This document shows positions 17,007 through 58,964 of a stretch of DNA of 64,000 nucleotides, one piece after another; positions within the stretch are counted from its first letter, which is position 1; every line of letters begins with the position of its first letter. Origin of the DNA: an uncultured Polyangiales bacterium (GTDB taxonomy: Bacteria; Myxococcota_A; Polyangia; Polyangiales; DASUME01); the NCBI GenBank assembly GCA_964515685.1, contig CAZEWA010000002.1, positions 7,932 through 71,931 on the forward strand, read 5' to 3'. The translations under genes were made by a program, and so were the position numbers. Under the pieces are notes generated by a model. It did no database searches. It saw only the letters and a list, made by a program, of their open reading frames with translations, and was not told the DNA's origin.

Positions 17007-17063
17007 GCGAGCGCGGTTCCGCACGTTGGGGGATGCGGAAGGTAGTTGTGCTCGAGTGTCTTT

Positions 17064-18506: not shown

Positions 18507-18524
18507 GGGGCCTTGGGGGACTCC

Positions 18525-20429: not shown

Positions 20430-22366
20430 GGTGATCCTGCCGCTCGCCGCAGGTAGTAGTGAACGCCGAGTCGCGGGTGCGCGAGGCGCACTGCGATGTC
20501 GGGCCGATCCGCCTTCGTCGAGACCTCGCCCACAAAACGCTCGTCCGCGTTCATGGTCACGCTCCCGCCTTCGACGCTTACCTTCCAGGTCTCTAGTGCC
20601 ACTCCCTCGATTGTAACCGTATCTCCTGGTTTGAATGCGCGATCTATTGGACTAACTAGGCTCGCTTTAGGTGCGGCGTTGTCGAAACGCACTTCTACCA
20701 CCGTGGTGCGAGAACGTCGGTCCTGCGCTTGAAAGCTCAGTTGATGGCTACCATCGCGGAGATTACCCGAACGAAACAAATGTTCTGGTTTGGTGAGCCG
20801 CATGGGTTGTCCGTCTACGAACAGGTCGTACGAGGCGCTTTGGGGCGCATTGGGCCAACCTACACTGATTTCAGGTAGTTGGTTTTGATAGTAAATCGTG
20901 TACGTGCGCCCGTCGGTTTCGACAAACGAAGTCGGGGCCTTAGAAGGCAGGCGGCGCGTGCCGGCATCGAGCATGACTTGCACCGTGCCGCGTGCGGCGA
21001 TCTTCTTGCCCGGCGCGCCTTTGTCATCGACGCAACGAATCACATAGGGCGTCGAGGTGGCCGGAATCACCACGCTGACCTGGTCTTTTCCGCGGACGCG
21101 CTGCTTGATTCCTGTGAGTTCGATTACACCGTCGCCAGGGCAACGCCCTGAAAAGTCGAAGCGCACGGAAGCTGGAACCTCTGGCGTGTGGAGCACGAAG
21201 GACTCGCCCGCTTTGACCGCCACGTTGTAGTAGCCGGCGCTATCTTCGATGGGACGATCGCTTGAGTCGCTGTTGGGGTTCGACCAGGACTTTTGCTGTC
21301 CTGCCTCGAGCTCCGTTACGACGCCGAGGATCTGAAGTGTGCCTGCGCCTTCCTTGATGATGACGTTGCCCGTGTCGTTCGTGACGCGAATCGCGGCGTC
21401 GCTGCCACTCGCCCGAGCATGTACTTGAATGGACCCGCCAGGAACGAGCACCTGAACGTCACTCGTCGTCGCTTGGACCGACAGGTCGCCAGCACGGGCG
21501 TCGATGAACGCGTTGTTCGTGTCGATTGCAAACTCGCCCGCGCCGCGCAGAGCGGCCTGTTGGTCACCGCGGCTGAGGTCGACGGCATCTTTGCGCTGAA
21601 GCCGCAGTTCCGTGCCAGGCGTCAGGTTGTGCTCCCCGGGCGTGAGTTTGGCCCAGTCAGAGCTTCCGGCGGCGCGCGCTCGTACACCCTTACCGCTGAC
21701 CCTGGCGAGGATCACTGCACCACCGATGGTGGCCGTGGTCTTTTCAGGTTCCTTCTCCGTATCGGCGGCGGCAAAGACAGCCATCCCGATGCCCACTTCA
21801 ACATTCTCGCCGGCTTTCAAGACGTGGTATTCGCCCGAGCTCGAACGAAAGTGCGCCTCACCGAGCGCGACGTCGTAGTCGATGTTTTCGCCCGATTTAC
21901 TCAAGGTGAGTTGACTGCCCGCGGTGAGCGTCGCGACGCCGATCTGCGTGCGCAGCAAAAGGTCCTTTTGCCCGACGCGCAGCGACACCTGACCGGCTTC
22001 GATGTTGAGCGTCTGCTCCCCTTCCTCGGCGCCGTCGACCAAGAAACGCAGCGTGGTGTTTTGCGCGAGCTCGAGCTGAGTCTGGTCTATCAAAGTGAGG
22101 CGCGCGGAAGTGTTGGCAAGGGTACGTACGCCGTCGCCGATAACGAAACGCGCGCCGCTCTCAGCGGTCTGCCACGTATAACGCGCCGCGTTGAAATCAC
22201 GCTCGATGCCTGGACCGCGAACCTCGATCAGAGTCGCGATGGCTTGGCCGTCGTCACCGCAGCTTCCGCATCCACTGAGTGCGGCAAGACACCACGCCAG
22301 AATACAAATCAGGGCGGCGTGCGCACGGCGAGGTCTACGATCGGTTTTTACAAGCAAATCGCTCAT
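20426..22366 (-). CDS. FecR-like domain lipoprotein (large beta-rich periplasmic protein)
   Basis: Signal + lipobox LAWCLAALSGCGSC. N-terminal GARFVIGDGVRTLANTSARLTLIDQTQLELAQNTTLRFL fits the FecR-domain pattern (tentative). ATGA overlaps at both ends (22363-22366, 20426-20429). Confidence 0.7.
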   Translation of the reverse strand: MSDLLVKTDRRPRRAHAALICILAWCLAALSGCGSCGDDGQAIATLIEVRGPGIERDFNAARYTWQTAESGARFVIGDGVRTLANTSARLTLIDQTQLELAQNTTLRFLVDGAEEGEQTLNIEAGQVSLRVGQKDLLLRTQIGVATLTAGSQLTLSKSGENIDYDVALGEAHFRSSSGEYHVLKAGENVEVGIGMAVFAAADTEKEPEKTTATIGGAVILARVSGKGVRARAAGSSDWAKLTPGEHNLTPGTELRLQRKDAVDLSRGDQQAALRGAGEFAIDTNNAFIDARAGDLSVQATTSDVQVLVPGGSIQVHARASGSDAAIRVTNDTGNVIIKEGAGTLQILGVVTELEAGQQKSWSNPNSDSSDRPIEDSAGYYNVAVKAGESFVLHTPEVPASVRFDFSGRCPGDGVIELTGIKQRVRGKDQVSVVIPATSTPYVIRCVDDKGAPGKKIAARGTVQVMLDAGTRRLPSKAPTSFVETDGRTYTIYYQNQLPEISVGWPNAPQSASYDLFVDGQPMRLTKPEHLFRSGNLRDGSHQLSFQAQDRRSRTTVVEVRFDNAAPKASLVSPIDRAFKPGDTVTIEGVALETWKVSVEGGSVTMNADERFVGEVSTKADRPDIAVRLAHPRLGVHYYLRRAAGSP

Positions 22367-26112: not shown

Positions 26113-27537
26113 TCAGGCGGTGAGGCTTCCGTTTTCAGAGGTGCGCGAGACGCTGAGAAGCCGCACTTCGATTCGGGCACCGCGCGGAGCATCGGCCGCG
26201 CGTATGTTGCCACCCGAGCGGATGGCGATGGCTTGAGACACCGAGAGACCAAGACCCGTGCCTTTGCCGGGCGGCTTGCTGGTCACGAACGGGTCAAACA
26301 TTTTGTCGCGCAGCTCGAGTGGAATGCCTGGCCCTGAATCCGAAACGGAAAGCAGCACCTCACGGGCATTGTGCTCCGCGGTTTCGATCAAAATGTATCC
26401 ATCGCCACCGACCGCGTCTGCGGCGTTCAGCAGGAGGTTCAACACGAGCTGTATGAGCTCGCTTTCGCTGCCACGTACGAGCGCGCTAGGAGCCGCAAAC
26501 CGCCGCTCGATCGTGATGCCGCGTAGATCTTTTTGCGGCGAAATGAGCTTGACCGCTTCCTCTACCACATGGACCAAGTTCGCTTGCTCCTCCGATATTT
26601 TGTCCGTGTCTGCACGGGCGTAGTCTAGGAGGCCGCGGATGATGCGGTGGATGCGCTCGACTTCGTTTTTTACGCGTTGCAGAAACTCGTGTTCTTCGGC
26701 TGGCTCGAGGTCGCCTGACAGGAGCAGCTCCACGAGTCCCAAAATCGCAGCCAGCGGGTTTCCTATCTCGTGGGCAATGCCCGCAGACAGTCGGCCCACG
26801 CTGGCGAGCTTCTCACTTCGGATCAAGTGGTCTTGCGTGGTGTGAAGTTCTCGCGTTGTATGCTCGAGCTCAGCAAGTCGCGCGACGAGAGCGCTTCTCT
26901 CTTCGCGTAGATCGCGCGCCATGCGATTGAAGCTCACCGAGAGCCGTGAGAGCTCAGCGGCTCCGACCACTGGCACGTGCGTGTGAAGTGCGGTGCTGGC
27001 GAGTCGCTCCGATGCGCGCGTAAGATTTTCGACGGGGCGCACGATGAGTCGTGTCAGGGCGACGTAGGTGGTCGCTAGAATCAACGCAAACGTGAGTAGC
27101 AGGTAAAGTCGCAGTAGTTTTTCGAGAGGGCCCGCCTCGTCGGCGAGCGAGGTTGTAGTCCATAGCGAGAGTTCGCTCCCGTCGGCCAGGCGCGTCTGTG
27201 CCGTGGGTTTTCCAGCGGTCCGGCCATGGCGCAACGTGCTGTCCGGCCCACGCTCAAGTGAAACTCCCACGACGTCGCCTCGGCCCAAGAGCCGCGGCAG
27301 GGAGGCTTCCGGTGTCAGGCCGTCGGTCTGTGCCATCAGCGTTGCGGCCATCACGTCGAGGGTTGCGTACGCGCGCCGACTGCGTTCGATGGTCTGAGCT
27401 TTGTGCGAGACCTGCATCACAATCACGCCGAGCGCCGCAAACGAAAGGATGAAAGCGATGCCGAGCGCGAGCAGTATCTGGGCGCGTAAGCCAAGCCCGT
27501 GGGCGTGTTCTGTGGTCTCGATCCGCTCCGTAGGCAT
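26113..27537 (-). CDS. Sensor histidine kinase (two TM helices, HAMP, HisKA, HATPase_c); no adjacent response regulator
   Basis: H-box [16 protein letters not shown]-box [13 protein letters not shown]-boxes SDSGPGI and GTGLGLS. Confidence 0.9.
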
Positions 27538-27543
27538 GTAGCG

Positions 27544-27981
27544 TCACATCTGCGCTGGAACGAATCCTTTGGCAATCGAGAAAACGGTGCGTGCATAGTC
27601 GACGCGTACCGACCTTTTCGGTGGGGGAGGTGGCAGGCCCTGAAGACGCGAGGCCAAGATGGCTCGGTCTACGCGCAGCATGCCGATGAAGTTGAGCCCT
27701 AGGGCGCAAGTCTCGTCGCCGTAGCGTCGACCCCACAATACACGTGTGACTTCGGCCTCCGCGTCGATGTAGAGGCTCGACCCCGGCACACGGAACGAGG
27801 CGAGGACTCGCGTTCCGACGGGAGCAGGAGCCAGGGCCCGCACGCGCATGCCTTGGATGGAGAGATCCAGGCAGGTTTCGGCGAGCAGGGAGAATCCGGC
27901 TTCTTCGACAATCTGGCACGGCATGCGTACCTGCCTGCGCATAGCGGTTCGGTCCCGAGCAAAGAGCAAGATTTCACGCAT
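27544..27981 (-). CDS. PilZ domain protein
   Basis: RTAMRR (RxxxR) near the N-terminus and DLSIQGMRV (DxSxxG). 6-nt gap to the downstream histidine kinase gene. Confidence 0.65.
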   Translation of the reverse strand: MREILLFARDRTAMRRQVRMPCQIVEEAGFSLLAETCLDLSIQGMRVRALAPAPVGTRVLASFRVPGSSLYIDAEAEVTRVLWGRRYGDETCALGLNFIGMLRVDRAILASRLQGLPPPPPKRSVRVDYARTVFSIAKGFVPAQM

Positions 27982-28071
27982 CGACCCACCTCCAGAAGGA
28001 AAAGCCTACCGGGAGCGGCTCACGTCCCCAAAAAAGGCGTCAATCTGGGTGCCTGTGAGAGCTGCGCATGG

Positions 28072-28107
28072 GCCGCGCAACTGCTCCATGGACGCGGGTT
28101 GCGCGGC
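28072..28107. promoter_or_regulatory. Perfect 10-bp inverted repeat in a divergent promoter region
   Basis: GCCGCGCAAC (28072-28081) / GTTGCGCGGC (28098-28107), with a 16-nt spacer centred on CCATGG. It lies between the divergently transcribed PilZ operon and the acetyltransferase cassette. Confidence 0.3.
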
Positions 28108-28291
28108 TCGAGGGTTAACGTGATTCGATGAAAAGCCGCGCGAAACCGCACACTTTCAAACACAAACCAGCGACAGAAAAACGGAGAGTCGTGATTACCG
28201 GAGGCTCGGGGGCGTGTTAGCTTGTGTGAAGCGGAACGACACGGACGCTGACGTGTCTGGCTTACTGTTTCCCATAACGGACAGGGTTCGT

Positions 28292-28930
28292 ATGTTCGAG
28301 AACATCGTCGGGGACTATCGACGGCACGATAGTTCGTTAAGGAACGGCGGCTTCTGGGCGCTCCTCGTATATCGCTTTGGCCGCTGGTCACTGCGTGCGC
28401 GCTCAGAACGGCCATTTGTAGGAAGGATCTGTGGTCTTTCGTACGGTCAAATCAAGCCCTTGGTGACTTGGATTACAGGTGTGGACTTGGAATGTACGAC
28501 ACAAGTGGGCGAGGCATTTCACATCGTCCATTCCACGGGTGTCTCCATTCATCCAAATGCAGTCATCGGTGATCGGGTCGGCGTCATGCACGGCGTGACG
28601 ATCGGCAGCAACATGGGGCAAGACGTTCCGGTGATCGGCAACGACGTCTTCATCGGCTGCAACGCTAGCATTCTCGGTGGTGTCAAGATTGGCGATGGCG
28701 CGCGCGTAGCCGCAAATTCGCTGGTAATTTCTGACGTTCCACCTGGATCGATGGCCATGGGCGTGCCGGCTCGATGCATCCCTGGAGTCAGTCGTTTGCG
28801 CGAGGCGCGCGCGAGCCGCAGCCTGGATTCGGCGCAAAAGAGCCTGGAACGCACCGCAAAGGGCGAAGCGCCAGCTGAGTCGCGCATTTCATCGAGCCTG
28901 ATGCGGGAGGAAAAGGGAGGCGCGTCGTGA
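28292..28930 (+). CDS. Hexapeptide-repeat O-acetyltransferase (serine acetyltransferase/WcaB-like)
   Basis: MFENIVGDYRRH...FWALLVYRFGRW N-terminus, then left-handed beta-helix repeats IHPNAVIGDRVGVMHGVTIGS...IGNDVFIGCNASILGGVKIGDGARVAANSLV. An alternative GTG start exists at 28214. Confidence 0.8.
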   Translation: MFENIVGDYRRHDSSLRNGGFWALLVYRFGRWSLRARSERPFVGRICGLSYGQIKPLVTWITGVDLECTTQVGEAFHIVHSTGVSIHPNAVIGDRVGVMHGVTIGSNMGQDVPVIGNDVFIGCNASILGGVKIGDGARVAANSLVISDVPPGSMAMGVPARCIPGVSRLREARASRSLDSAQKSLERTAKGEAPAESRISSSLMREEKGGAS

Positions 28931-30585
28931 GCTCCTTGCCGACGGATGCGGAGTCGTGGCTTTCCATTCTGGAGGCCCACGCACGTTTACGAGGCGATAA
29001 GACGGCCATCACGTGTCGCTTTGCGGATGGTGGTTATGGCCAGACTTCGTTCGCGCAGCTCGCCGACAAGGTGCAGGCCTTGGCTGTGCACTTCGAACAG
29101 GAGTGCAGCGAAGGGCAAATTATCCCGCTGTGTTTGGCGCGCGGTCCAGATGCCGTGGCGGCGATCATGGCGGCGCTCGTGGCAGGGCGCGTCTTCTGCT
29201 GCGTGAATCCGAAGCTCAGATTGCCGCAGATCGAGCACATCATCTCGTCTACGCGTGCAACTTGCGCACTGGTCGACGAGTCCGGTTTGCTGTCGATGCG
29301 CGGCGATATTGGCGCCGAATCAGCCCTGTTTTCGCCCACGTGGTGGATGCGGGAAGACGTACCCGTAACGCGCCTGGCCATGAAGGCCTATCGACGCTTT
29401 CAAGACCGTGGACGCATTCGTGCTTTAGCCATGCAGCCTGCGTCATGGTATGCGGAGCGTGAGCGCGATCCAGAACGCGTAGGAGCCTGTCTTTTTACGT
29501 CCGGTTCGACAGGAACGCCAAAGGGCGTCCTGGTGAGCGCGGCGGATCTGCTCGCCCGTGCGCGTGCAGAGGCTGCATGGTTCGGTCTCAGCGATGCGGA
29601 CGTCTTGCTCAATATCTTACCGTTCTCATTCGACGTGGGGCTCAACCAAATGTTGTCCGCGCTGCTTGTGGGGGCGGAGTTGATCGTGCTCGATTCGTGG
29701 CTTCCAAAGGACATTCTGTCCGTCACGGAAAGTCGAAAAGCCACGGGAATTTCCGGTGTTCCCTCCATCTGGGCGGACTTCTTTCGAGACGGCGCTCGGT
29801 TCGACTGCAAGGCAGCCCATCGGTCCCTGCGCTATCTTACGGTTTCAGGGGGTGACCTGACGCAGGCGCAGCACGCGCGTCTTCCTGCCCTGGCTGAAGG
29901 CGCAAAAATCTTCAAGACCTACGGTCAGACGGAAGCCTTTCGAGCCACGTCACTACGGCCCGAAGACTACACGCGCAGGCCGCTCAGTGTGGGCAGAGCG
30001 TTCCAGGGCGTCGACCTCTACGTGGTGCGTGAAGATGGAAGCCTTGCCGCGCCGAACGAGCTCGGGGAAGTTGTCCATGGTGGACTCGGTCTGATGCTCG
30101 GCTATCTCGATGGAGACGACCCTCAGAACAAGCTGCGCGACAACCCTTGGCGACGCGCAGAGGGCGGAAGTCGAAGGGTGGTCTTCACGGGGGATATCGG
30201 ATTTCTCGACGATGAGGGCTTTCTCCATCTCTCCGGTCGCCGCGATGATCTGGTGAAAATTCAGGGCAATCGTGTGTATCCGGGTGAAGTGCGAAACCAC
30301 ATCGCGTTGCTACCGGGCGTTGCCAGTGTGGAGGTTATCGTGGTGCGGACCGACAATCGGACAGAACTCGCGGCGTTCGTGGTGCTTGATTCAACGATCG
30401 AATCAGGTTCCTTGGACGCAAAAAACCTGCGTCTCCGGCTGCAGCGAGAGGTGCCATCGTACATGGTGCCCGAGTTGTTTTTCCTGCGTGAGAGCTTGCC
30501 GCGCACGATGACTGGCAAACCCGACCGCGTCACGCTCGCGGCCGAGGCCGTTGAGCATTTGGCTGGAACGCGGTGCGCCCGATGA
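28927..30585 (+). CDS. ANL-superfamily adenylating enzyme (AMP-forming ligase / carrier-protein loading enzyme)
   Basis: The GTG start overlaps the upstream stop (GTGA). Core motifs LFTSGSTGTPKGV, TYGQTEA, GDIGFLDDEGFLHLSGRRDDLVKIQGNRVYPGEV and PRTMTGKPDR. Confidence 0.9.
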   Translation: MSSLPTDAESWLSILEAHARLRGDKTAITCRFADGGYGQTSFAQLADKVQALAVHFEQECSEGQIIPLCLARGPDAVAAIMAALVAGRVFCCVNPKLRLPQIEHIISSTRATCALVDESGLLSMRGDIGAESALFSPTWWMREDVPVTRLAMKAYRRFQDRGRIRALAMQPASWYAERERDPERVGACLFTSGSTGTPKGVLVSAADLLARARAEAAWFGLSDADVLLNILPFSFDVGLNQMLSALLVGAELIVLDSWLPKDILSVTESRKATGISGVPSIWADFFRDGARFDCKAAHRSLRYLTVSGGDLTQAQHARLPALAEGAKIFKTYGQTEAFRATSLRPEDYTRRPLSVGRAFQGVDLYVVREDGSLAAPNELGEVVHGGLGLMLGYLDGDDPQNKLRDNPWRRAEGGSRRVVFTGDIGFLDDEGFLHLSGRRDDLVKIQGNRVYPGEVRNHIALLPGVASVEVIVVRTDNRTELAAFVVLDSTIESGSLDAKNLRLRLQREVPSYMVPELFFLRESLPRTMTGKPDRVTLAAEAVEHLAGTRCAR

Positions 30586-31856
30586 TTACCGAAGCACGCA
30601 AACAGATTCTCGCGAAGGTTGCGGAGCGCAGCGGCACGCCGTCGTTCGTGTACTTCATCGCGGATATGGAGCAGCGAGCCAAGGAACTCAAAGACGCCTT
30701 TGAGGGAGCCTTCAGTCTCAGCTTCGCGATGAAGTGTAACCCGCACCCGGCCATCGTGCGCAAGCTGCAAGGGCTCACCGAAGCGCTCGATGTGTCTTCG
30801 GGAGGGGAGCTGCGCATCGCGCTTGCGTTGGGCTATCGCCCAGACCGTATTAGTTTTACGGGGCCCGCCAAGCAGCGTGCAGACTTGGAGCTGGCCGTGC
30901 ATCACGCGATAGGCGAGGTGGTGGTCGAGTCTGTGCGTGAGGCTCGCGAGCTGAGCCAGCTTGCACAGCGCCAGGGCAAAACTCAGTCCATTCTGATTCG
31001 TATTGCACCTCGGCGGGTACCAAAGGGCTTCGGTGTGAACATGGCGGGTCGTCCATGCCAGTTCGGCATCGACGAAGAGGACCTCGATGCGGCCGTCCAC
31101 AGCATCAAAAACCTGCCCGGGCTCGCGCTCCAAGGCTTTCATATCTACTCCGGCACGCAGTGCCTCAAGCCTGCTGCAATCGCCGAAAATTACGGCATTT
31201 TGATGGATATCTATCGAGGGGTGTGCTCTGCGCACAAGCTTCGTCCAAGAAAGCTCATCTTCGGCTCAGGGTTTGGTATCCCCTATCACGACGAAGACGT
31301 ACCTCTCCGCGCACAGGACGTGGCGGACCGCGTGCTGTCGGAGCTGCAAGCCTTTAAGCGCGAGGGGCCCTTTGCGGAGGTGGAGCTCATCTTGGAGATG
31401 GGCCGTTACCTTGTCGGCGAAGCCGGCATCTACCTAACGCGAGTCGTGAATCGCAAGCACTCGAGGGGCACGGAGATAGCCACCTTTGATGGAGGCATGC
31501 ATCACCACTTGGGCGCTGCGGGCCACTTGGGGATGGTTCTGCATCGCAACTACCGCCTGTTTCAGCTCTCCCCACATCCGGAAGCCACGCGCGTCCAGCA
31601 CGACCTCTACGGCCCGCTTTGCACGACCATCGACGTGCTGGGGCGCGGCGTCGAGATGCCTGAACTCCAGGTTGGCGACGTGATCGGAATCCACTGCAGT
31701 GGCGCCTACGGTGTCACAGCCAGTCCGGCACACTTCATCAGCCATGACTTGCCGGCCGAAGTGATGGTCGAGGGCCCAGAAAGTGCCCCGGTTGTAACCG
31801 AGATTTCAAGCCGTCGTCGGCATGGAGATCCAGACTCTGTAAGTGGGGCGATGTAA
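30582..31856 (+). CDS. PLP-dependent decarboxylase, Orn/DAP/Arg decarboxylase (alanine-racemase fold) family
   Basis: The ATG overlaps the upstream TGA (ATGA, 30582-30585). FAMKCNPHP (PLP Lys context), DVSSGGEL, the HIYSGTQ region and C-terminal CSGAYG. Confidence 0.85.
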   Translation: MITEARKQILAKVAERSGTPSFVYFIADMEQRAKELKDAFEGAFSLSFAMKCNPHPAIVRKLQGLTEALDVSSGGELRIALALGYRPDRISFTGPAKQRADLELAVHHAIGEVVVESVREARELSQLAQRQGKTQSILIRIAPRRVPKGFGVNMAGRPCQFGIDEEDLDAAVHSIKNLPGLALQGFHIYSGTQCLKPAAIAENYGILMDIYRGVCSAHKLRPRKLIFGSGFGIPYHDEDVPLRAQDVADRVLSELQAFKREGPFAEVELILEMGRYLVGEAGIYLTRVVNRKHSRGTEIATFDGGMHHHLGAAGHLGMVLHRNYRLFQLSPHPEATRVQHDLYGPLCTTIDVLGRGVEMPELQVGDVIGIHCSGAYGVTASPAHFISHDLPAEVMVEGPESAPVVTEISSRRRHGDPDSVSGAM

Positions 31857-31871
31857 TCGGGGGGAGCCAAC

Positions 31872-32114
31872 ATGAGTCGTTATGAGCGGATCGTTTTGTA
31901 TATACGGGAGCACATGGAGCCGGAGTTCGACCCGGGTGAGGATGCGCTGAGCCAGGTGCTTGACTCGGTGTCACTGCTCCAGTTGATCACGTTTATCGAC
32001 CACGATCTGGGGATTCCGCTCGACCTCGAGGGGCTCAGCATGGAGAGTTTTGCGTCGGTGGAGAGTGTCGTCCGCCTGTTGGGGGAGTACGGGCGCGAGA
32101 GTCACACGCACTGA
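31872..32114 (+). CDS. Stand-alone acyl/peptidyl carrier protein
   Basis: 80 aa. Phosphopantetheine-attachment context SQVLDSVSLLQLITFIDHDLGI (DSxxxLQL). Confidence 0.8.
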   Translation: MSRYERIVLYIREHMEPEFDPGEDALSQVLDSVSLLQLITFIDHDLGIPLDLEGLSMESFASVESVVRLLGEYGRESHTH

Positions 32115-32382
32115 GAACGGCGATGTAAGCGGGGGGCCGTCCTAGACTGTGGATCCCGGCGGGGGTGACTGTGCATGAGCAAACTGCACTGGAGCCACCG
32201 GGCGGGATCGTTTCTGTCGCAAATCGTGTATCCTGTGCCTTGGAGTGCCAAAATCTTTTGCACTCGCACGGGACGGTTTGGTCATGAGGTGGAATCCCGA
32301 CATCGTGTCTTCGCCATGCCGGCCTGCGAGGAAAGTGGCGCACCGAACCGTGCGCGAACAAGACTTCGCTTTGGTGTAGTGC

Positions 32383-33420
32383 ATGTTCATCTCCATCCTT
32401 ATGGTCCGCGGATTGATAGGCGAGCTGCAGCGTCGAGGCATCGAACCGCATCGCCTGTTGGAAGGCTTTGAGATTGAGCCGGCAACGCTCGCGGATATGC
32501 GGAGCATGATCGAGGTTCCGATCTTCGAGCGCATGGTCTCGCGTGCGATGAAGATCACGGACGACCCCGGCCTAGGGTTGTCCGTAGGATCTCATGCACC
32601 CGACCACATGCTGCAGCTGTTGGGTCACCTACTCATGTCAGCCTCGACACCGCTTGAGGCGTTCGAACTGTTTCAGCGCTTTTCGCCCTTGGTTGTGGAT
32701 GATATGCGCTTGTCTCTCGCGGTGCGCGGTCCCACGGCCAAGGTGACCTTTGGCTACCACGGAGCGGTGGCCGAGGAGACCTTGCGGTTCGGGGCGGATA
32801 TCACAGCCTCCATGATCGTGCGTGTGGTCCGGCAGTTCATTGGCGAGGACGCGTTCGCCAATGAGATTTGGTTTCGCCATGCCGAGCCGAGCTACGCCTT
32901 CCGCTACCAGAAGGTGTTCACATGTCCCGTTCGCTTCTCCCAAGCCGAGAATGCGCTCTGGGGGGACGCCGCGATCTTGCAGCAGCCCCAGCGCTACGGT
33001 GACCTCACCACGAGCCAGTTTTTGCGCGCGGCAGCCGAAAAAATGCTGAGCCAGCTGGGGACTCGGGCCAGTATCGGAGAGCGCTTGAGCGCTCGGTTGC
33101 GCCAGGAAGCGGACCTGTGCAACGTCGATATGTCGGCGATTGCGCGCGAGTTTGGGTTGACCCATCGCGCCATGCGGCGGCGTTTGCAGACCGAGGGCTC
33201 GTCGATGTCGCAGATTCTGGAGCAGGCGCGCGAGCGGATGGCCTGTGAGGAGCTACGGCGTCCCGGAGCCTCGATCCGAGACGCAGCAGAACGCATCGGC
33301 TACTCCGAACCGAGTGCCTTCTTCCGGGCGTTTAAACGCTGGACCGGGCTTACGCCTGCGCAGTACCTGCGAGCGGCACAAGAGGGCTCGTTGCCGGTGT
33401 CGGAGACGACCTCCAACTAG
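32383..33420 (+). CDS. AraC family transcriptional regulator with an N-terminal AraC-type ligand-binding domain
   Basis: C-terminal double HTH ...IAREFGLTHRAMRRRLQTEG... and IRDAAERIGYSEPSAFFRAFKRWTGLTPAQY. Confidence 0.9.
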   Translation: MFISILMVRGLIGELQRRGIEPHRLLEGFEIEPATLADMRSMIEVPIFERMVSRAMKITDDPGLGLSVGSHAPDHMLQLLGHLLMSASTPLEAFELFQRFSPLVVDDMRLSLAVRGPTAKVTFGYHGAVAEETLRFGADITASMIVRVVRQFIGEDAFANEIWFRHAEPSYAFRYQKVFTCPVRFSQAENALWGDAAILQQPQRYGDLTTSQFLRAAAEKMLSQLGTRASIGERLSARLRQEADLCNVDMSAIAREFGLTHRAMRRRLQTEGSSMSQILEQARERMACEELRRPGASIRDAAERIGYSEPSAFFRAFKRWTGLTPAQYLRAAQEGSLPVSETTSN

Positions 33421-33494
33421 CCTGGTGGGCACTCTGGGCCGCGATCAGATCAGACAGCGGACATCAGCAAGCTTGAGCCTCGGGAGCCGCGCCG

Positions 33495-34073
33495 TCAGAG
33501 GCAGATCCAGTGATACCAGTCGCAGATGCAGTTGTAGCCGGAGTAGCCGCAGGTGGCGTAGATCGGCACGCCGATACACGAGCCAATCGGGTTTTCAGGG
33601 GCGTGCTTAGGGCACTCTGGGATGTTGGAGGCATCGGGCTCGCGACCGGGCACGATGGTGTCGTTGGGATCGGACGAGCCGATGTCGCCGCTGCCCGTCG
33701 CGGGAGGGGGCGTACCCGCGTCATCACAACCGAAGAGGCTACACAAAATAGAACCGATGTCGCCGCCCGCCGGGCCGGCCATATCTTCTTCTTCTTCTTC
33801 TTCAGCAGGATACTCGGGCGTCGTAGGATAGTCGTCCGTGGACGGGGGCGGAACATAGCCGTTTCCATCCGAGGGAGGCGGATAGATCGGCTCCTCTTCT
33901 CCCGTCGGCTCGATCCCGGGTGGCGGCGTCCACTTGCCGTCCTCACCGACAGGATTCGCTGCGGGATCCGCGCAAGCAGCGAGGGAAAGCAAGAGCGCTA
34001 CCGCGCTTACTCTTCCGAACAGGGAGCGGATATCAACCACTTGAGAAGCAAAGCTAGGCCGAAGTAAGTTCAT
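33495..34073 (-). CDS. Pro/Glu-rich lipoprotein with a Cys-rich C-terminal module, hypothetical
   Basis: ORF 33495..34094; start chosen at MNLLRPSF. Lipobox LLLSLAAC, an EEEEEE run (GAA x6), and C-terminal ECPKHAPENPIGSCIGVPIYATCGYSGYNCICDWYHWICL. Confidence 0.6.
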   Translation of the reverse strand: MNLLRPSFASQVVDIRSLFGRVSAVALLLSLAACADPAANPVGEDGKWTPPPGIEPTGEEEPIYPPPSDGNGYVPPPSTDDYPTTPEYPAEEEEEEDMAGPAGGDIGSILCSLFGCDDAGTPPPATGSGDIGSSDPNDTIVPGREPDASNIPECPKHAPENPIGSCIGVPIYATCGYSGYNCICDWYHWICL

Positions 34074-38536: not shown

Positions 38537-39631
38537 TCACGCGAGGTCTTGCGGCAGATAGACGACGAAGAGCGGTGGGCCTTTGTCGCGGAAGAGCAGG
38601 CCGACATGGCCACCCACGTGTGCCACGATATCTTGAGCGCTGGTGAGGCCCAGGCCGGACGCATGCCGGGGAGACGCGCCTGCGTTGGTGAGAAGCTCCA
38701 TGGCGAGCCCAGGTCGGCTGCATTCTGGATGATCGTCCGAGGCCAACGTGAACTCCACGTACGCGCCTGCGGACAGAGTCGGCGGAAGCCCTTCCAGTAG
38801 CTGAACTCGGCGCATGGAAACCAGGATCGGACACTCAGGTGGGAGGGAATCTCGCAAGTGCAGCACGAGCTGCACCAGGATTTGTGCGAGCGGCTCTAGG
38901 TCGAGTCGCAGGTAGCAAGGCTCAGGGGCGAACCACGTGCGAAAGGCAAGCTCCGGAACGAGCTGCCGAATGCACTGCGTGACGGACTGAAGTAGTTTTT
39001 CAGCCGGCAGACGCGAGGGCGTTACTTTGGGCTGGTGCGTAAGGTGCGTGAGCTGAGTCGAGAGACATGCCGCACGCTGCGTCGCCGCGATGAGGGTCTG
39101 CGTACGCTGCACGAGATTTGCGCCAAGCTCGCCGCTCAGCAGCATGAGCTCGCCGACGGACATGATCACAGTCAGCAGGTTGTTGAAGTCGTGGGCGAGT
39201 GTGCCTGCGACCCTCGTCATGAATGCGAGCTCCGAACGCAGTGCCTGCACGTCGTCGGTTTCTGCTCCCGAATTCGGTCGAAGCAACATGCCGTGCAAGC
39301 GCGTGGAATCGGTGGTCCGTTGAGCCCACAAAAGAGCCGTACACCGCTGTGAGGTGTCCGCGCCGCGCAGCTCGATCGTGACTACGGTCGGGCCCTGATT
39401 CGCCGCCTCAAGCAACTGGTGAAACGAAGGGGTCGCGGTGAGCTTGTGCTCTACCACGTGCGCCGCATCCGTAATATCGGGCCGGCACATGCGCGCAAAG
39501 GCAAGGTTGCTTGCCGTCACCACGCTGTTCTCATCGACCGCGAAAAGACCGAGTGAGGCGTCTGCGAGCGCTGTTGCCAGGGAAAGAGTTGGCGAGGAGG
39601 ATTCTGGGGGCACGCGGCACTCCGACATCAA
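38537..39631 (-). CDS. Cytoplasmic PAS-type sensor histidine kinase with a degenerate ATP-binding domain
   Basis: H-box GTLAHDFNNLLTVI. The expected N-box reads QLVLHLRDS (Asn positions are Gln/His). The G1 region reads ASDDHPEC. G2 ASGLGLT is retained. Confidence 0.8.
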   Translation of the reverse strand: MMSECRVPPESSSPTLSLATALADASLGLFAVDENSVVTASNLAFARMCRPDITDAAHVVEHKLTATPSFHQLLEAANQGPTVVTIELRGADTSQRCTALLWAQRTTDSTRLHGMLLRPNSGAETDDVQALRSELAFMTRVAGTLAHDFNNLLTVIMSVGELMLLSGELGANLVQRTQTLIAATQRAACLSTQLTHLTHQPKVTPSRLPAEKLLQSVTQCIRQLVPELAFRTWFAPEPCYLRLDLEPLAQILVQLVLHLRDSLPPECPILVSMRRVQLLEGLPPTLSAGAYVEFTLASDDHPECSRPGLAMELLTNAGASPRHASGLGLTSAQDIVAHVGGHVGLLFRDKGPPLFVVYLPQDLA

Positions 39632-39687
39632 AGCGTCTCCGCGTGCCTCATAGGGCAGACACCGTCATGTTGCGTCATAACGACACA

Positions 39688-39708
39688 GTCAACGTAGACT
39701 GTCAACGT
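39688..39708. promoter_or_regulatory. Tandem GTCAACGT direct repeat upstream of the PAS kinase gene
   Basis: GTCAACGT at 39688-39695 and 39701-39708 (13-nt period). On the minus strand each copy contains TTGAC, a -35-like core, 55-75 nt upstream of the ATG at 39631. Confidence 0.25.
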
Positions 39709-39788
39709 GGACGTGTAGGTTGTTCCCGTTCAGGAACGGCCGGGTTCGCAGATTTTTGCAGCGTAAAAGGCTTTTGTTGAAGGGTCGA

Positions 39789-39821
39789 GCGTCGGGATGG
39801 CGGCACCCGCCGACGCTTTTT
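39789..39821. terminator. GC-rich hairpin with a flanking A5/T5 tract (candidate bidirectional terminator at the end of the Glt-like operon)
   Basis: GCGTCGG (39789-39795) pairs with CCGACGC (39810-39816), followed by TTTTT (39817-21) on the plus strand. It begins 10 nt from the stop at 39831. Confidence 0.45.
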
Positions 39822-39830
39822 CTGCAGACC

Positions 39831-40520
39831 TTAGAACACGTAGCGCAGATAAACCGAACCGTACCCCCCAAGTGTAAACTTGGTTCTGGCAAGGGAAGGG
39901 TAGGATCGTGCACCGCCCAAAACTCCGAGCGAGTGATGCCGTGCACGAAAGTGCCAGTCGAAGCCCAGTTCTCCGCCGTAGTTTATGCCCGCCTTGATCG
40001 AGTCCCGGAAGTCGAGCGCGCGTAAAACGTCTTTGGTGGCCCACTGGACGCCCAGTAGACCGCCTACGAAAATGGAGGCTCGTGGGCCAAAGGGAAGAGC
40101 GAATCGTGGGCCCGAGGCAACACCGAGCAGCTCGTACGCGCTCGGATGGGGCGGCGCTCGGTTGTCCGTTCGATGCAGCGACCCTTCGAGTAGAAGCACG
40201 TAGCTGAACCAGGAAGCTACTTCGTAGCCTACGGCTGCGGCGAATCTCGGACCAGGCGTGCTTACGATGTTCGCGTCGCCCGCGAACGCGAGGGTTCCAA
40301 ATTGGGCCTCTAGAAAAAGGCCCCTTGCATAGAGCTCGCGCGACGCAGTGACGGCTTCGACAGGCAGGCGTGCCACGTCGAGTCGGGTGGAATCGATGGC
40401 TTCTGCGGCCTGCGAGCTCGGGTCTAAGTCCGCGTCTACCGCAGGTTCAGCGCGCGCCGAGCTGCCGTATAGCAGGGCGCACAGCACCAACCGATAGAGC
40501 GAGCCCACGCGCTTGGTCAT
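39831..40520 (-). CDS. Outer-membrane beta-barrel protein, last gene of the Glt/Nfs-like cluster (GltH/NfsH position)
   Basis: Signal peptide LVLCALLYGSSARA; Gly/aromatic alternating strands; C-terminal ...GSVYLRYVF. ATGA overlap with the upstream gene. Confidence 0.65.
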   Translation of the reverse strand: MTKRVGSLYRLVLCALLYGSSARAEPAVDADLDPSSQAAEAIDSTRLDVARLPVEAVTASRELYARGLFLEAQFGTLAFAGDANIVSTPGPRFAAAVGYEVASWFSYVLLLEGSLHRTDNRAPPHPSAYELLGVASGPRFALPFGPRASIFVGGLLGVQWATKDVLRALDFRDSIKAGINYGGELGFDWHFRARHHSLGVLGGARSYPSLARTKFTLGGYGSVYLRYVF

Positions 40521-41308
40521 GGCTCCTCCTCGGGGGTAACGGGTACAAAGTTCTGCGGCGTAGGTAAGTCCCAGCTTGAATCGCCGCGCTCTGCGAGTCG
40601 ATTTCCATGGTCCTGGGCGCGCGCGCTTAGGCGCAGGACGAGCTCGGGCGCGGGGGCCTCGTCTCCGTCCGCTTCGGTTTGAATCCCCATCCGAAATGCG
40701 ATGAGTCCGGGAATCACTTCAGGAATGAATCCTTGGACTCGAGGATCACGTGTGGACTGACTCTCTGAGTGAACGACCAGCGCGGTATTCGGCGCACCGT
40801 TGACGGCTGTCGCAAGGTCGATGGCCACCTCTTCCATTTGCAGCTCACGGATGGTCCCGCTCACGCGCTCACCGGGTTCGACACGGAATCTGCGTTCGTA
40901 TTGATGGAAGTCTGCGGGTCCCGGTGTGTAGGCGTGGAACTCGTTGATGCCGTCCAGAAATACCAACGCGGAAACGGCCTGCTCGCTGCGATTTTCGAGC
41001 ACGTAGTCGACCTTGATTTCGAGGTCTTGATGCCCGATCCAGGGCAAGCGCGGAAAGGGCAACATGCGCCCCTGGGCACCTTCGCGTAGCTGCTGCAGGA
41101 CAAGCTCGGGGGGAGGGCGCAGTGGGAGAGAGAAGCGCCGTGACACGATAAACACGGCGTTGTCGTTCTCATCGACGAAGGCTGCTTCAGCGGTGGCGGG
41201 CATACGCACGCGTTCCCGTTCCACCACATAGCGCTGCTCTTCGATGCAGCCCACAGCGCTGAGCGAGCCGCAGACGATGATGAGAGCTATGGGGAAACCC
41301 GCGCGCAT
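40517..41308 (-). CDS. Lipoprotein, hypothetical (extra member of the Glt/Nfs-like cluster)
   Basis: Signal + lipobox ALIIVCGSLSAVGC. 1-nt gap to the upstream gene and a 4-nt overlap with the downstream gene. Confidence 0.65.
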   Translation of the reverse strand: MRAGFPIALIIVCGSLSAVGCIEEQRYVVERERVRMPATAEAAFVDENDNAVFIVSRRFSLPLRPPPELVLQQLREGAQGRMLPFPRLPWIGHQDLEIKVDYVLENRSEQAVSALVFLDGINEFHAYTPGPADFHQYERRFRVEPGERVSGTIRELQMEEVAIDLATAVNGAPNTALVVHSESQSTRDPRVQGFIPEVIPGLIAFRMGIQTEADGDEAPAPELVLRLSARAQDHGNRLAERGDSSWDLPTPQNFVPVTPEEEP

Positions 41309-41309
41309 T

Positions 41310-42671: not shown

Positions 42672-43147
42672 CTTAGGGGCTCACGCTGCGTGGTGCGGGA
42701 AAGTTCTGGCATGAAGCTGCGATGCGGAAGTCTAGGGCGTTCGAACTCGGCTTGGACGCGATTGACGAAGTAAAGAAGCTGCGGAGACTTGAGCCGTCCC
42801 TCGATGTCGAGTCCGGTGAACGTCATGACTTTCACGTTCGTCTCTCCTTCTTTGACGATGTGCGCGTCGAGTGTGGAGTCTTGCGCCGCTGCGCGTGCAG
42901 CCTCTTGGGCGCGCGTCTTTGTCGCATCGGGCTCCCGCTGTACGGGCACGGGCGGCTGTGCGGCACGCTCGTCACTCTTTTTCTGTGTCGGCTTCTTTGA
43001 CGCAGCTTGTTTGGGGCGCGAGCGCTCAGCACGCTTCTTTGAGCTCTTTTTCCCGGCCTGGGCAGGCGGATCTTCCGCCTGTACTAGGGTACAAGGCAGA
43101 AGACTGAATCCGAGCAGGCTCACGACGAGTAGGGCGCGTAGGTTCAT
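42668..43147 (-). CDS. Small secreted basic protein (GltF/NfsF position), hypothetical
   Basis: Signal peptide LLVVSLLGFSLLPCTLVQA; Lys/Arg-rich linker; conserved-looking C-terminal VMTFTGLDIEGRLKSPQLLYF. 4-nt overlaps on both sides. Confidence 0.6.
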   Translation of the reverse strand: MNLRALLVVSLLGFSLLPCTLVQAEDPPAQAGKKSSKKRAERSRPKQAASKKPTQKKSDERAAQPPVPVQREPDATKTRAQEAARAAAQDSTLDAHIVKEGETNVKVMTFTGLDIEGRLKSPQLLYFVNRVQAEFERPRLPHRSFMPELSRTTQREPLR

Positions 43148-58676: not shown

Positions 58677-58964
58677 GGTTACCCTTCGGTCACGTCGCGC
58701 TTCGGCCGCACCTCCCCGCTCGGTCCGACTTAGGGGCGGCGCCGGGATGGGGGGTGTATCCATTCGGAAACCGCCGCATCTTACACAGGCGCCATGGTCA
58801 CCGAAATAGCGCTGACCGGTCTCTCGGGACCAGCGACTTACCAGTTTCCGCACCACTGTGATGGCTTTGATGACAGCGGAAAATAGTTGGCCGGTTGCGT
58901 CAAGATTGTATCCCGAGAGACAGTTCTGCCTGGGTCGTCCAGCAAACAAATCTCTGGAGGCGGA

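Follow-up and report, generated by a model that had tools for sequence, protein, structure and literature searches.

Organisation of the locus

The stretch of DNA analysed here, referred to as the window, is 64 kb long and carries the five genes and the conserved non-coding block listed in Table 1. The transferase and ligase genes overlap in a GTGA junction (28927-28930), and the ligase and decarboxylase genes in an ATGA junction (30582-30585). The carrier gene follows the decarboxylase gene after a gap of 15 nt, with a Shine-Dalgarno-like GGGGGAG located 5 nt upstream of it, and is separated from the AraC gene by 268 nt. All five plus-strand genes, both overlaps and the 15-nt gap were thus found as reported in an earlier, preliminary description of the locus. 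The gene identities are far above chance level; the HMM E-values are 7e-57 for AMP-binding, 1e-33 for Orn_Arg_deC_N, 6e-15 for Hexapep and 3e-37 for the AraC N-domain.

Table 1. Genes and conserved non-coding block of the locus, in window coordinates.
Feature	Position	Strand	Remarks
Hexapeptide (left-handed beta-helix, LbH) protein gene, putative acyltransferase	28292-28930	+	212 aa; Pfam Hexapep
ANL adenylating enzyme gene	28927-30585	+	552 aa; GTG start
PLP decarboxylase gene	30582-31856	+	424 aa
Carrier protein gene	31872-32114	+	80 aa; motif LDSVSLLQL with Ser32
AraC regulator gene	32383-33420	+	345 aa; neighbour outside the conserved cassette
Conserved non-coding block 5' to the cassette, GATTACC...GCGTGTTAGCTTGTGTGAAGC	28193..28232	+	alignment with L003 and L009

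In an alignment with two Myxococcales relatives, the ATG at 28292 coincides with their start codon position. An alternative, longer start of the hexapeptide gene, the GTG at 28214, sits within the conserved non-coding block. This block can be aligned between the window and two Myxococcales relatives, L003 and L009, and is conserved among them; it may represent a promoter or an operator, and a search of it returned neither a sigma-70 consensus match nor an Rfam family.

The AraC protein matches Pfam Arabinose_bd (3e-37) and HTH_18 (7e-18), and its top NCBIfam match is QhpR, with 186 bits against a cut-off of 250. The preliminary description had grouped this regulator with the cassette, an assignment that the comparison of loci does not uphold: an AraC gene occurs near the cassette in 2 of the 56 loci with sufficient flanking sequence, limited to the window's own lineage and L009. 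The AraC gene is therefore a neighbour that lies outside the conserved unit.

Properties of the encoded proteins

Adenylating enzyme: Judged by its sequence, this protein is a stand-alone, NRPS-type, amino-acid-activating enzyme. Its top PDB matches are NRPS A domains, followed by stand-alone beta-aminoacyl-ACP synthetases; it scores 185-219 bits against A-domain structures versus approximately 90 bits against FadD-type structures, and its motifs are of the NRPS type (A4 FD, A9 LPSYMVP and A10 GKPDR). An identity as fatty acyl-CoA ligase was rejected on the basis of these motifs and of a score of 219.9 against a cut-off of 476 for the long-chain family NF004837. The DltA family TIGR01734 yields 131 (cut-off 560) and TIGR03098 yields 349.6 bits (cut-off 592.35). 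The majority ligase subtype among the relatives reaches 534-557 against TIGR03098, and the subtype found in the window approximately 350.

A substrate prediction for this enzyme had been proposed as a check in the preliminary description, and it led to VinN. When the pocket region was used as the sole query, VinN ranked first in an alignment that is gap-free from YGQTE to SVG, although the match is modest (38 bits, E 1e-8). In this alignment, D236, S307 and R339 of the ligase correspond to D230, S299 and R331 of VinN, residues with described roles in substrate recognition (PMC11253843, PMC7756342). These Asp/Ser/Arg recognition residues are conserved at 97% or more over 79 family ligases, with R339 kept in 77 of them and Ser or Thr at position 307 likewise in 77. 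F231 of VinN is replaced by Val in the window ligase and by Tyr in most relatives. The VinN-like pocket points to aspartate as a substrate that would be activated at its side-chain carboxyl. Because the pocket keeps the residues that bind a free alpha-carboxylate, the substrate would still possess this carboxyl when it is loaded, and loading would therefore come first, with decarboxylation afterwards.

Decarboxylase: The second enzyme is, from its sequence relationships, a BtrK-like PLP enzyme of the alanine-racemase fold. BtrK is its closest solved relative (225 bits, E 1e-65), with the best diaminopimelate decarboxylase at 135 bits, and Lys51, which would bind PLP, is present together with His187, Glu272, Cys347 and Tyr376. 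Both this protein and BtrK contain DGGMHHH (at residue 303, in the context DGGMHHHLG), for which the LysA equivalent is DAGMNDLIRP; the Arg of the latter motif binds the distal carboxylate of DAP in LysA structures. A LysA identity was rejected, given this replacement of the substrate motif and a score of 236.9 against the cut-off of 297.9 for lysA (TIGR01048). Against TIGR03099 the protein scores 371.3 (cut-off 478.45), and in other types of locus five relatives reach 354-399.

Carrier protein: The window carrier sequence by itself gave no Pfam match. The family profile, A2, matches solved carrier proteins with E-values from 2.5e-14 to 1e-5, including 6cxt (2.5e-14), PltL and PigG (approximately 1e-7), 4h2s (5e-7) and DltC (6e-6). 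At the level of sequence, the profile resembles type II aminoacyl/peptidyl carriers and DltC, not FAS ACPs. D31-S32 is invariant in the family, and Ser32 in LDSVS is presumably the site of phosphopantetheine attachment.

Hexapeptide protein: The top NCBIfam matches are EpsC (108.1 bits, cut-off 150) and CysE (95.7 bits, cut-off 210.65), and the sequence resembles that of a truncated CysE/WcaB-type enzyme. Compared with E. coli CysE, the catalytic Asp-His pair is retained as Asp65 and His80, D157 is replaced by Val, and GDRHP is replaced by GQDVP with a 3-residue deletion. The residues that bind serine in the E. coli enzyme are D157, R192 and H193. An assignment as serine O-acetyltransferase (CysE/EpsC) was rejected, both cut-offs being missed and the serine-binding residues being replaced. 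Of the label "hexapeptide O-acetyltransferase" given in the preliminary description, the hexapeptide fold stands (Pfam 6e-15), but the O-acetyltransferase activity is unproven because the serine-binding residues are absent. Relatives at approximately 50% identity were also found outside the cassette.

Related loci in other bacteria

To place the cassette in a wider context, we compiled 84 non-redundant related loci from at least eight phyla by means of ad hoc HMMs applied with six-frame ORFs. A ligase gene was found within 6 kb of the decarboxylase gene in 80 of the 84 loci, a carrier ORF likewise in 80 and an LbH gene in 48. The four genes are co-conserved across phyla. Apart from the trio of ligase, decarboxylase and carrier, the LbH gene, translationally coupled to the ligase gene, is the only other conserved gene; it is absent from approximately 40% of the related loci. 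It lies immediately 5' of the ligase gene in 46 of the 84. The order HEX-ANL-ACP-DC occurs in 36 loci, and HEX-ANL-DC-ACP, the order of the window, in 8.

The LbH-bearing relatives usually reside within polysaccharide loci, where the cassette is flanked by glycosyltransferases, Wza, a priming transferase and a flippase. In Paracoccus ferrooxidans, it is preceded by gmd, fcl and a gene for a DegT aminotransferase, the last of these being found within 10 kb in just 3 related loci. In sister loci, the LbH gene gives way to an MBOAT gene, present within 6 kb of the decarboxylase gene in 13 of the 84 loci, and to a DltX-like microprotein, which in nine cases has FxYxxF, the acyl-shuttle motif of DltX, at its end; the homologous trio would thus feed a Dlt-type polymer-acylation route there. 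As a rule, the LbH gene and the MBOAT/DltX-like set replace each other (34 loci versus 7, with 2 overlaps). The "DltD-like" partner of about 390 aa gave no Pfam match.

The window itself differs in its surroundings. Over its 64 kb, we found no glycosyltransferase, MBOAT, DltX, DltD, phosphopantetheinyl transferase or other acceptor gene, and none of its large ORFs has a PKS, NRPS, acyltransferase or condensation domain. Exosortase, PEP-CTERM protein and N-acyl synthase genes were likewise not found in it, and the earlier remark on the absence of exosortase, glycosyltransferase and NRPS/PKS genes holds for the entire window.

Proposed pathway and its alternatives

Our best reading is that the cassette is a variant of a known carrier-tethered decarboxylation device, in which aspartate would be converted to a beta-alanyl-S-carrier and off-loaded by the LbH protein, probably onto a glycan. 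On balance, we lean towards viewing the four genes as one operon-like module that makes and passes on a carrier-bound omega-aminoacyl group. The ligase would activate the side-chain carboxyl of a dicarboxylic alpha-amino acid, most likely L-aspartate handled as a "beta-amino acid" as it is by VinN and FlvN, and would attach this substrate as a thioester to the carrier's phosphopantetheine arm. The BtrK-like decarboxylase would then strip the still-free alpha-carboxylate from the tethered substrate, leaving a beta-alanyl-S-carrier, and the LbH acyltransferase would pass the aminoacyl group to an acceptor. The related loci suggest, by analogy, that this acceptor may be a surface-polysaccharide sugar, none being encoded in the window.

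Individual parts of this pathway differ in strength. Decarboxylation on the carrier is likely on sequence grounds: the BtrK-like decarboxylase, the alpha-carboxylate-binding pocket of the NRPS-type ligase and the co-conservation of the genes favour an amino acid that is loaded and then decarboxylated while tethered, in agreement with the logic of the preliminary description. The findings that would speak against that logic, namely a plain fatty acyl-CoA ligase, a bona fide LysA or a lack of co-conservation, did not emerge from any of the sequence tests. The conversion of aspartate to beta-alanine has about an even chance of being the actual chemistry, and a glycan acceptor in the source organism, suggested by analogy, could go either way. 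For the LbH protein, we propose that it either off-loads or N-caps the aminoacyl group on the carrier, and hold the transferase role only tentatively.

The closest parallels are VinN/VinL/VinO (vicenistatin), FlvN and its partners (fluvirucin) and BolO/BolC/BolN (bolagladin), which supply beta-aminoacyl-carrier starter units. Like the cassette, they pair a stand-alone NRPS-type enzyme for the beta-carboxyl of (methyl)aspartate with a free carrier and a BtrK-like decarboxylase that acts on the tethered substrate, and the VinN triad Asp/Ser/Arg is conserved in the window ligase. By sequence, the cassette appears to combine the same elements: a ligase with the VinN residues, an adjoining decarboxylase of the BtrK/VinO type and a free-standing carrier with a predicted attachment serine. 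Delivery to a PKS or NRPS by VinK-type or VinM-type enzymes, on the other hand, was not found in the 64-kb window. In contrast to these systems, the window has no PKS/NRPS, second aminoacylating enzyme (VinM), VinK-type acyltransferase or glutamate mutase; the fourth gene of the cassette encodes an LbH acyltransferase, its relatives lie in polysaccharide rather than natural-product clusters, and the host is Myxococcota-like, not an actinomycete or Burkholderia.

The trio could work as described while the LbH protein is an acetyl-CoA-dependent N-capping enzyme or a co-travelling polysaccharide O-acetyltransferase, an unlinked enzyme releasing the cargo. The nearest relatives of the LbH protein (serine acetyltransferases, WcaB and Vat) depend on acetyl-CoA, and CysE/WcaB-type LbH enzymes normally take this donor and not acyl carriers, which counts against off-loading; moreover, LbH relatives exist without the trio, and many trio loci without LbH. 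We nevertheless consider this alternative unlikely, since the LbH gene is translationally coupled to the ligase gene, lies directly upstream of it in those 46 loci across phyla, keeps this position even in Myxococcales, with no polysaccharide gene nearby, and seldom occurs together with the MBOAT/DltX-like set for off-loading, and since the cassette in the window has no other cargo-releasing enzyme.

Two further comparable systems acylate surface polymers. In the Dlt system (DltA/DltC/DltB/DltX/DltD), an ANL enzyme loads a small amino acid onto a carrier of about 80 aa to acylate a surface polymer; the likeness extends to the MBOAT and FxYxxF microprotein of the sister loci and to the match between the carrier profile and DltC. 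Unlike Dlt, the window lacks MBOAT, DltX and DltD genes, possesses an additional PLP decarboxylase and a ligase that is VinN-like rather than DltA-like, and has an LbH transferase in place of the membrane shuttle. The second is the WbeK/L/M/N/O tetronate pathway of Vibrio cholerae O1, reportedly described by Morona and colleagues in 1995, which employs an ACP, an ANL ligase and an acyltransferase of the hexapeptide family to make an unusual acyl group and attach it to an O-antigen sugar. The likeness to the cassette is one of pathway logic, drawn from the description of the pathway alone, and the Wbe pathway differs in having no decarboxylase and another acyl group. WbeL and the link between tetronate and perosamine are documented (PMC3441752). 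The gmd, fcl and DegT neighbours of the cassette in Paracoccus ferrooxidans are a further point of likeness to this pathway.

The precedent named in the preliminary description was BtrI/BtrJ/BtrK, which builds the butirosin side chain. It holds for the decarboxylase, with BtrK as the nearest relative, DGGMHHH, a small carrier and decarboxylation on that carrier in common; for the ligase, VinN/VinL/VinO, FlvN or BolO/BolC/BolN are the better precedent because BtrJ is an ATP-grasp ligase and not an ANL enzyme. The cassette also differs from the butirosin system in having no aminoglycoside genes and no equivalents of BtrH, BtrG and BtrO, and the substrate of BtrK is gamma-glutamyl. The same architecture might therefore act on glutamate, with loading of L-Glu at the gamma-carboxyl and subsequent decarboxylation giving a gamma-aminobutyryl-S-carrier as with BtrK, and with the LbH protein either N-acetylating it against lactam formation or transferring GABA. 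The substrate of BtrK, gamma-L-Glu-S-BtrI (PMC7857480), argues in this direction, as does N-capping after decarboxylation, which is the rule for butirosin, vicenistatin and bolagladin. Still, BtrK-like enzymes such as BolN have also been proposed for isoaspartyl carriers, and a BtrK-like sequence is therefore compatible with either aspartate or glutamate. The gap-free pocket match to VinN, including an equally long loop and the triad that serves an amino group in beta position to the activated carboxyl, and the many related loci that have no LbH gene despite the same lactamisation problem make glutamate improbable.

A more distant option, also raised in the preliminary description, is membership in the ligase and decarboxylase families associated with exosortase A/PEP-CTERM loci. 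In that case, the ligase could be loading a fatty acid that goes into N-acyl amino acids or lipids, and a free amino acid could be the substrate of the decarboxylase. TIGR03098 and TIGR03099 are indeed the top curated matches of both enzymes, and these families share with the cassette the adjacent ligase and decarboxylase genes and the association with polysaccharide loci. However, both scores are well under the cut-offs (349.6 versus 592 and 371.3 versus 478), the cassette includes an LbH gene, the window has no exosortase/PEP-CTERM context or N-acyl synthase, and the ligase carries the motifs of an NRPS A domain as well as the Asp that binds the amino group, with a carrier that resembles aminoacyl carriers, making this option very improbable. 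That the genes are chance neighbours with housekeeping roles (CysE, fatty acyl-CoA ligase, LysA and ACP), as the public names of homologues would have it ("serine O-acetyltransferase", "AMP-dependent synthetase", "diaminopimelate decarboxylase"), is scarcely credible given the missed equivalog cut-offs (lysA 237/298, cysE 96/211, long-chain ligase 220/476), the replaced LysA and CysE substrate-binding motifs, and start-stop overlaps and a gene order conserved across phyla, which would be unexpected for unrelated genes.

Returning to the cassette as a probable carrier-tethered decarboxylation device, what stands alone in this genome region, with no visible acceptor, is in other bacteria an uncharacterised module that forms part of surface-polysaccharide loci.

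Gene layout and surroundings of the cassette

Both the ORF table and direct reading recovered the five plus-strand genes of the preliminary description, which encode a hexapeptide transferase (LbH), an adenylating enzyme of the ANL type (the ligase), a PLP decarboxylase, a small carrier protein and an AraC regulator. The start/stop overlaps between cassette genes are likewise present, with GTGA and ATGA as the junctions, as is the 15-nt gap ahead of the carrier gene, whose ATG is preceded by a Shine-Dalgarno-like GGGGGAG. A further 268 nt separate the carrier gene from the AraC gene. Pfam E-values for the cassette enzymes and the regulator range from 6e-15 to 7e-57, and a single-sequence Pfam search with the window carrier returned no match.

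Features of the cassette and other features of the window (window positions)
Feature	Position	Strand	Basis
Non-coding block 5' of the cassette, ~40 nt (GATTACC...GCGTGTTAGCTTGTGTGAAGC)	28193-28232		Conserved in three Myxococcales genomes, window included
Hexapeptide transferase	28292-28930	+	ORF table and direct reading; Pfam Hexapep
Adenylating (ANL) enzyme	28927-30585	+	ORF table and direct reading; Pfam AMP-binding and AMP-binding_C
PLP decarboxylase	30582-31856	+	ORF table and direct reading; Pfam Orn_Arg_deC_N and Orn_DAP_Arg_deC
Carrier, 80 aa	31872-32114	+	ORF table and direct reading
AraC regulator	32383-33420	+	ORF table and direct reading; Pfam Arabinose_bd and HTH_18
472-aa copper monooxygenase-like protein	6088-7506	+	Both domains of copper type II ascorbate-dependent monooxygenases (PHM/DBH-like)
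Very large TPR protein	11721-15884	-
Very large TPR protein	44244-49561	-
Very large TPR protein	53355-58949	-
Several ORFs	38537-43147		No Pfam match

The first cassette gene likely begins at ATG 28292, because this codon aligns with start codons in two Myxococcales relatives and GTG 28214 falls within the conserved non-coding block. That block matched neither the sigma-70 consensus nor an Rfam family. A scan of 27500-33700 against Rfam gave one sub-threshold match only, and thus no riboswitch pointing to a ligand, while matches in promoter and terminator scans were no more numerous than in shuffled sequence.

Upstream, the minus-strand neighbours encode a PilZ protein, a histidine kinase, UvrC, a CarboxypepD_reg protein, a FecR protein and a Ser/Thr kinase; hypothetical proteins, pyruvate kinase, a second Ser/Thr kinase and TPR proteins follow downstream. 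Elsewhere, the window encodes TPR and kinase proteins, PhoH, a PALP enzyme, ZapA, a TetR regulator and the copper monooxygenase-like protein, whose PHM/DBH-like class is uncommon among bacteria. One of the very large TPR proteins (1864 aa) is fused to a Ser/Thr kinase and another (1387 aa) to a zinc ribbon; together with the Pfam-less ORFs they present a picture typical of Myxococcota. The GC content is 0.60-0.66, and the closest relatives are Myxococcales MAGs, with decarboxylase identity of 68-69% and syntenic PilZ and UvrC; along with the gene content, these features point to a Myxococcota-like genome. The reported absence of exosortase, glycosyltransferase and PKS/NRPS genes holds across the 64-kb window, where no MBOAT or phosphopantetheinyl transferase was found either.

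Proposed loading and decarboxylation of the substrate

Among solved structures, the decarboxylase is closest to BtrK, the L-glutamyl-[BtrI carrier] decarboxylase of the butirosin route (225 bits, E 1e-65, versus 135 bits for the best DAP decarboxylases). The PLP lysine K51, H187, E272, C347 and Y376 are present in the alignment. The window enzyme and BtrK have DGGMHHH in common where a LysA structure has DAGMNDLIRP, the Arg of which grips the distal carboxylate of DAP. A bona fide LysA is ruled out by this replacement, by the wide lead of BtrK and by a lysA model score of 237 bits against a cut-off of 298. Because BtrK scores nearest and DGGMHHH stands in place of the LysA motif, the decarboxylase falls among enzymes whose substrates are tethered, which favours the carrier-bound role first suggested for it. 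Such enzymes form one clade with DAP decarboxylases (PMC7857480).

Comparison of the ligase with solved structures placed NRPS A domains on top (185-219 bits), followed by the stand-alone beta-aminoacyl-ACP synthetases HitB, VinN, CmiS6 and IdnL1 and then by DltA. A fatty-acyl ligase is ruled out, as the corresponding models scored far under their cut-offs and FadD-type ligases reached ~90 bits. NRPS core motifs A3 to A10 are visible in the alignment. When 79 family ligases were aligned to GrsA-PheA, using a reference whose numbering was checked by the canonical code DAWTIAAICK, the equivalents of Asp235 and Lys517 proved invariant, and the pocket code D-[V/Y/A]-N-[A/G]-T-[S/T]-[T/M] was conserved throughout all locus types. 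An apparently shorter beta13-beta14 loop than in GrsA was dropped from consideration, since MAFFT and HMMER differ on the gap position, and for the pocket loop we relied only on the gap-free VinN alignment.

With the region between motifs A4 and A5 alone as query, the best solved match was VinN (3wv4/3wvn), from the vicenistatin route, and the alignment is gap-free from YGQTE to SVG. Window segments SFDVGL, LTVSGG and YGQTEAFRAT correspond to SWDFGL (D230, F231), FTNSAA (S299) and YGQTECKRIS (K330, R331) in VinN. This enzyme activates 3-methylaspartate at the beta-carboxyl; Asp230 binds the amino group, and Ser299 and Arg331 bind the alpha-carboxylate (PMC11253843, PMC7756342). The equivalents of D230, S299 and R331 in the window ligase are D236, S307 and R339, with R339 retained in 77 of the 79 family ligases and Ser/Thr307 also in 77/79. 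As the pocket fits a free alpha-carboxylate, the loaded species would remain an alpha-amino acid, and decarboxylation would follow loading. Since no glutamate mutase lies near the cassette, the simplest assumption is plain L-aspartate as substrate and beta-alanyl-S-carrier as product.

Carriers of the family share an invariant Asp-Ser, ahead of which two residues are missing in the window's subtype. A profile built from twelve members matched the Bmp1 carrier domain (6cxt) at 2.5e-14, the prolyl carriers PltL and PigG at about 1e-7, aminoacyl carrier proteins (4h2s) at 5e-7 and DltC at 6e-6 to 1e-4; most fatty-acid ACPs were weaker (about 1e-5 to 0.2). To judge by these matches, an amino acid fits as the cargo.

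Loading of an amino acid and its decarboxylation on the carrier, as originally proposed, is therefore the best-supported mechanism at the sequence level, with a VinN-like pocket and a BtrK-like decarboxylase. The carrier-loading logic of the BtrI/BtrJ/BtrK precedent stands, but the precedent itself is refined: the ligase reads as VinN-like, and the chemistry is likely Asp to beta-alanyl-S-carrier, with Glu as the alternative substrate.

The LbH protein best matches serine acetyltransferases of the short and long forms (EpsC, 108 against a cut-off of 150; CysE, 96 against 211), along with WcaB. Aligned to E. coli CysE, it keeps the catalytic Asp-His pair (D65, H80), has Val at CysE D157, the residue ahead of the His, and carries GQDVP for GDRHP with a three-residue deletion. 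We take D157 and GDRHP to be serine-binding positions in the SAT structure; since they are replaced, the name "serine O-acetyltransferase" that public records give to LbH homologues is unlikely to fit. The protein is plausibly a cytoplasmic-side transferase of the aminoacyl group, or alternatively an enzyme that acetylates this group, and its gene is the only one in the window that could release the carrier's cargo. Restriction of this gene to the cassette is ruled out, as relatives at ~50% identity are also encoded elsewhere (L091, 7001-14178; L090, 7001-7564). FAD halogenase-like genes and a second Hexapep gene accompany one of them, near ANL, carrier and acyl-CoA dehydrogenase genes; another has asparagine synthase, NAD synthase and a GDSL protein as neighbours.

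Conservation and context of related loci

A protein search yielded 3076 decarboxylase homologues at E <= 1e-20, the best 120 of which are 50-72% identical, and, with each species represented by one genome, relatives turned up in at least 273 species-representative genomes. These lineages include Myxococcota, Planctomycetota, Binatia, Alpha-, Beta- and Gammaproteobacteria, Verrucomicrobiota, Acidobacteriota, Gemmatimonadota and others. The best 80 of the 273 relatives and loci from contig look-ups gave 84 non-redundant loci, on whose six-frame ORFs we ran HMMs built from clustered ORFs. The four cassette genes are co-conserved, contrary to what would have refuted the preliminary description: within 6 kb of the decarboxylase, the ligase and the carrier were each found in 80/84 loci and the LbH gene in 48/84. 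GT61-like genes (33/84), sulfotransferases (19/84) and MBOAT genes (13/84) occur within the same distance. The same-strand order hexapeptide-ligase-carrier-decarboxylase was seen in 36 loci, the window's order, with the decarboxylase before the carrier, in 8, and ligase-carrier-decarboxylase in 15. The AraC regulator does lie downstream of the cassette but is not co-conserved (2 of 56 loci with enough flank); found only in the closest relatives, it is ruled out as a system component.

Some loci vary this layout. On a TARA scaffold (L006, 9687-11236), a carrier-like ORF immediately precedes the gene of a decarboxylase homologue of 53% identity, with no ANL ligase within 10 kb; an enzyme encoded elsewhere, or one of another kind, may load this carrier. 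A conserved protein of ~257 aa with no Pfam match lies between the hexapeptide and ligase genes in L036, L040 and L089 and occurs also in L018 and L055; it is absent from the window. In deltaproteobacterial MAGs (L004, L005 and L012; e.g. L004 11611-21236), an acyl-CoA dehydrogenase and a >2200-aa Pfam-less protein lie downstream of the cassette, with divergent MBOAT and GDSL proteins upstream.

In Alphaproteobacteria, the cassette sits amid a Wza-like exporter, GT1, GT2, GT61-like and WecG glycosyltransferases, a priming sugar transferase, a GMC oxidoreductase and an Sfp-type phosphopantetheinyl transferase. In L037, L054 (e.g. 16913-21157) and about 15 other Neorhizobium/Rhizobium loci, the cassette lies next to a 1200-1450 aa protein with Formyl_trans_C, AMP-binding, luciferase-like monooxygenase and PP-binding domains, which an Sfp-type phosphopantetheinyl transferase and a GMC oxidoreductase adjoin; this set is a second carrier-dependent pathway within the same polysaccharide locus. 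In other loci, the ligase-carrier-decarboxylase trio is paired with sulfotransferases and a flippase.

Paracoccus ferrooxidans pFER4 (L092, 958-10206) carries, on one strand, gmd, fcl (GDP-fucose synthase), a DegT aminotransferase, a lipase, GT61 and then the cassette, annotated as "serine acetyltransferase", AMP-dependent synthetase, ACP and type III PLP enzyme. This run suggests N-acylation of a 4-amino-6-deoxy sugar. The adjoining gmd, fcl and DegT genes would also suggest amino-sugar N-acylation as a general acceptor route, but only 3 related loci have a DegT gene at a distance of up to 10 kb.

A third class of loci, sister to the window's, lacks LbH and has, immediately ahead of the trio, a ~390-aa protein with no Pfam match ("DltD-like" is our own label), a 40-56 aa ORF and an MBOAT gene. 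The small ORF, placed between the other two (L008 6654-6785 and L014, with equivalents in L021, L025, L027, L035, L084, L087 and L088), encodes one hydrophobic helix and a C-terminal F-x-Y-x-x-F, for instance VFQYEGF, IFRYQGF or PFKYQGF. DltX carries the same motif, termed the "acyl shuttle", and its tyrosine takes D-alanine from DltC via DltB (PMC12148441); a 2025 paper reported no such microprotein in other MBOAT pathways. The sister loci look like a Dlt-type machine with an added decarboxylase in Planctomycetota, Verrucomicrobiota, Thioploca and Gammaproteobacteria. LbH and the MBOAT set mostly replace one another (34 versus 7 loci, both in 2, among the 56 loci with >=4 kb on each side). 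An MBOAT and a DltX-motif ORF beside a homologous trio imply that the trio would feed polymer-acylation machinery, and surface-polysaccharide decoration is the family context that these neighbourhoods best support.

Relation to the exosortase-A pair and biological meaning

The curated exosortase-A-associated families TIGR03098 (ligase) and TIGR03099 (decarboxylase), to which the preliminary description had pointed, are indeed the top curated matches of the two enzymes, but both scores fall under the cut-offs (349.6 bits against 592 and 371 against 478). Decarboxylases of all locus types score 354-399 bits with TIGR03099. The ligases form two subtypes against TIGR03098: the majority (code DYNATSM) reach 534-557 bits and the window's (DVNGTST) only about 350-360. 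Because both enzymes stay below the cut-offs, the cassette family would be a sister of the exosortase-A pair and not a member, with no curated model of its own, and by these comparisons the window ligase and carrier appear as a divergent branch of it. Our literature search found no paper naming TIGR03098 or TIGR03099, none on exosortase or EPS loci with a set of ligase, ACP and decarboxylase, and none for 8XJZ.

We tentatively read the cassette, as a possibility rather than a probability, as the cytoplasmic branch of a widespread pathway that decorates surface glycans with cationic omega-aminoacyl, probably beta-alanyl, groups. The donor would arise by VinN/BtrK-type on-carrier decarboxylation and pass either to a CysE-like beta-helix transferase using aminoacyl-carrier instead of acetyl-CoA (the window and about 57% of loci) or, in the sister loci of Gram-negative phyla, to a DltB/DltX-like transmembrane acyl shuttle.

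To our knowledge, on-carrier decarboxylation of Asp or Glu has so far been described only as a supply route for antibiotic assembly lines (butirosin, macrolactams, bolagladins). The cassette pairs this device with a beta-helix acyltransferase, and its relatives occupy polysaccharide loci across many phyla. Should the product be a beta-alanyl or similar EPS/LPS substituent, it would be a new charge-modifying decoration comparable to teichoic-acid D-alanylation. The reading, if true, would also explain what the exosortase-A-type ligase/decarboxylase pair, long a puzzle, does and correct the public annotations LysA, CysE and acyl-CoA ligase for cassette genes. This large and misannotated family is amenable to experiment, and cultured carriers such as Neorhizobium, Paracoccus, Ruegeria and Sphingobium make direct testing feasible.
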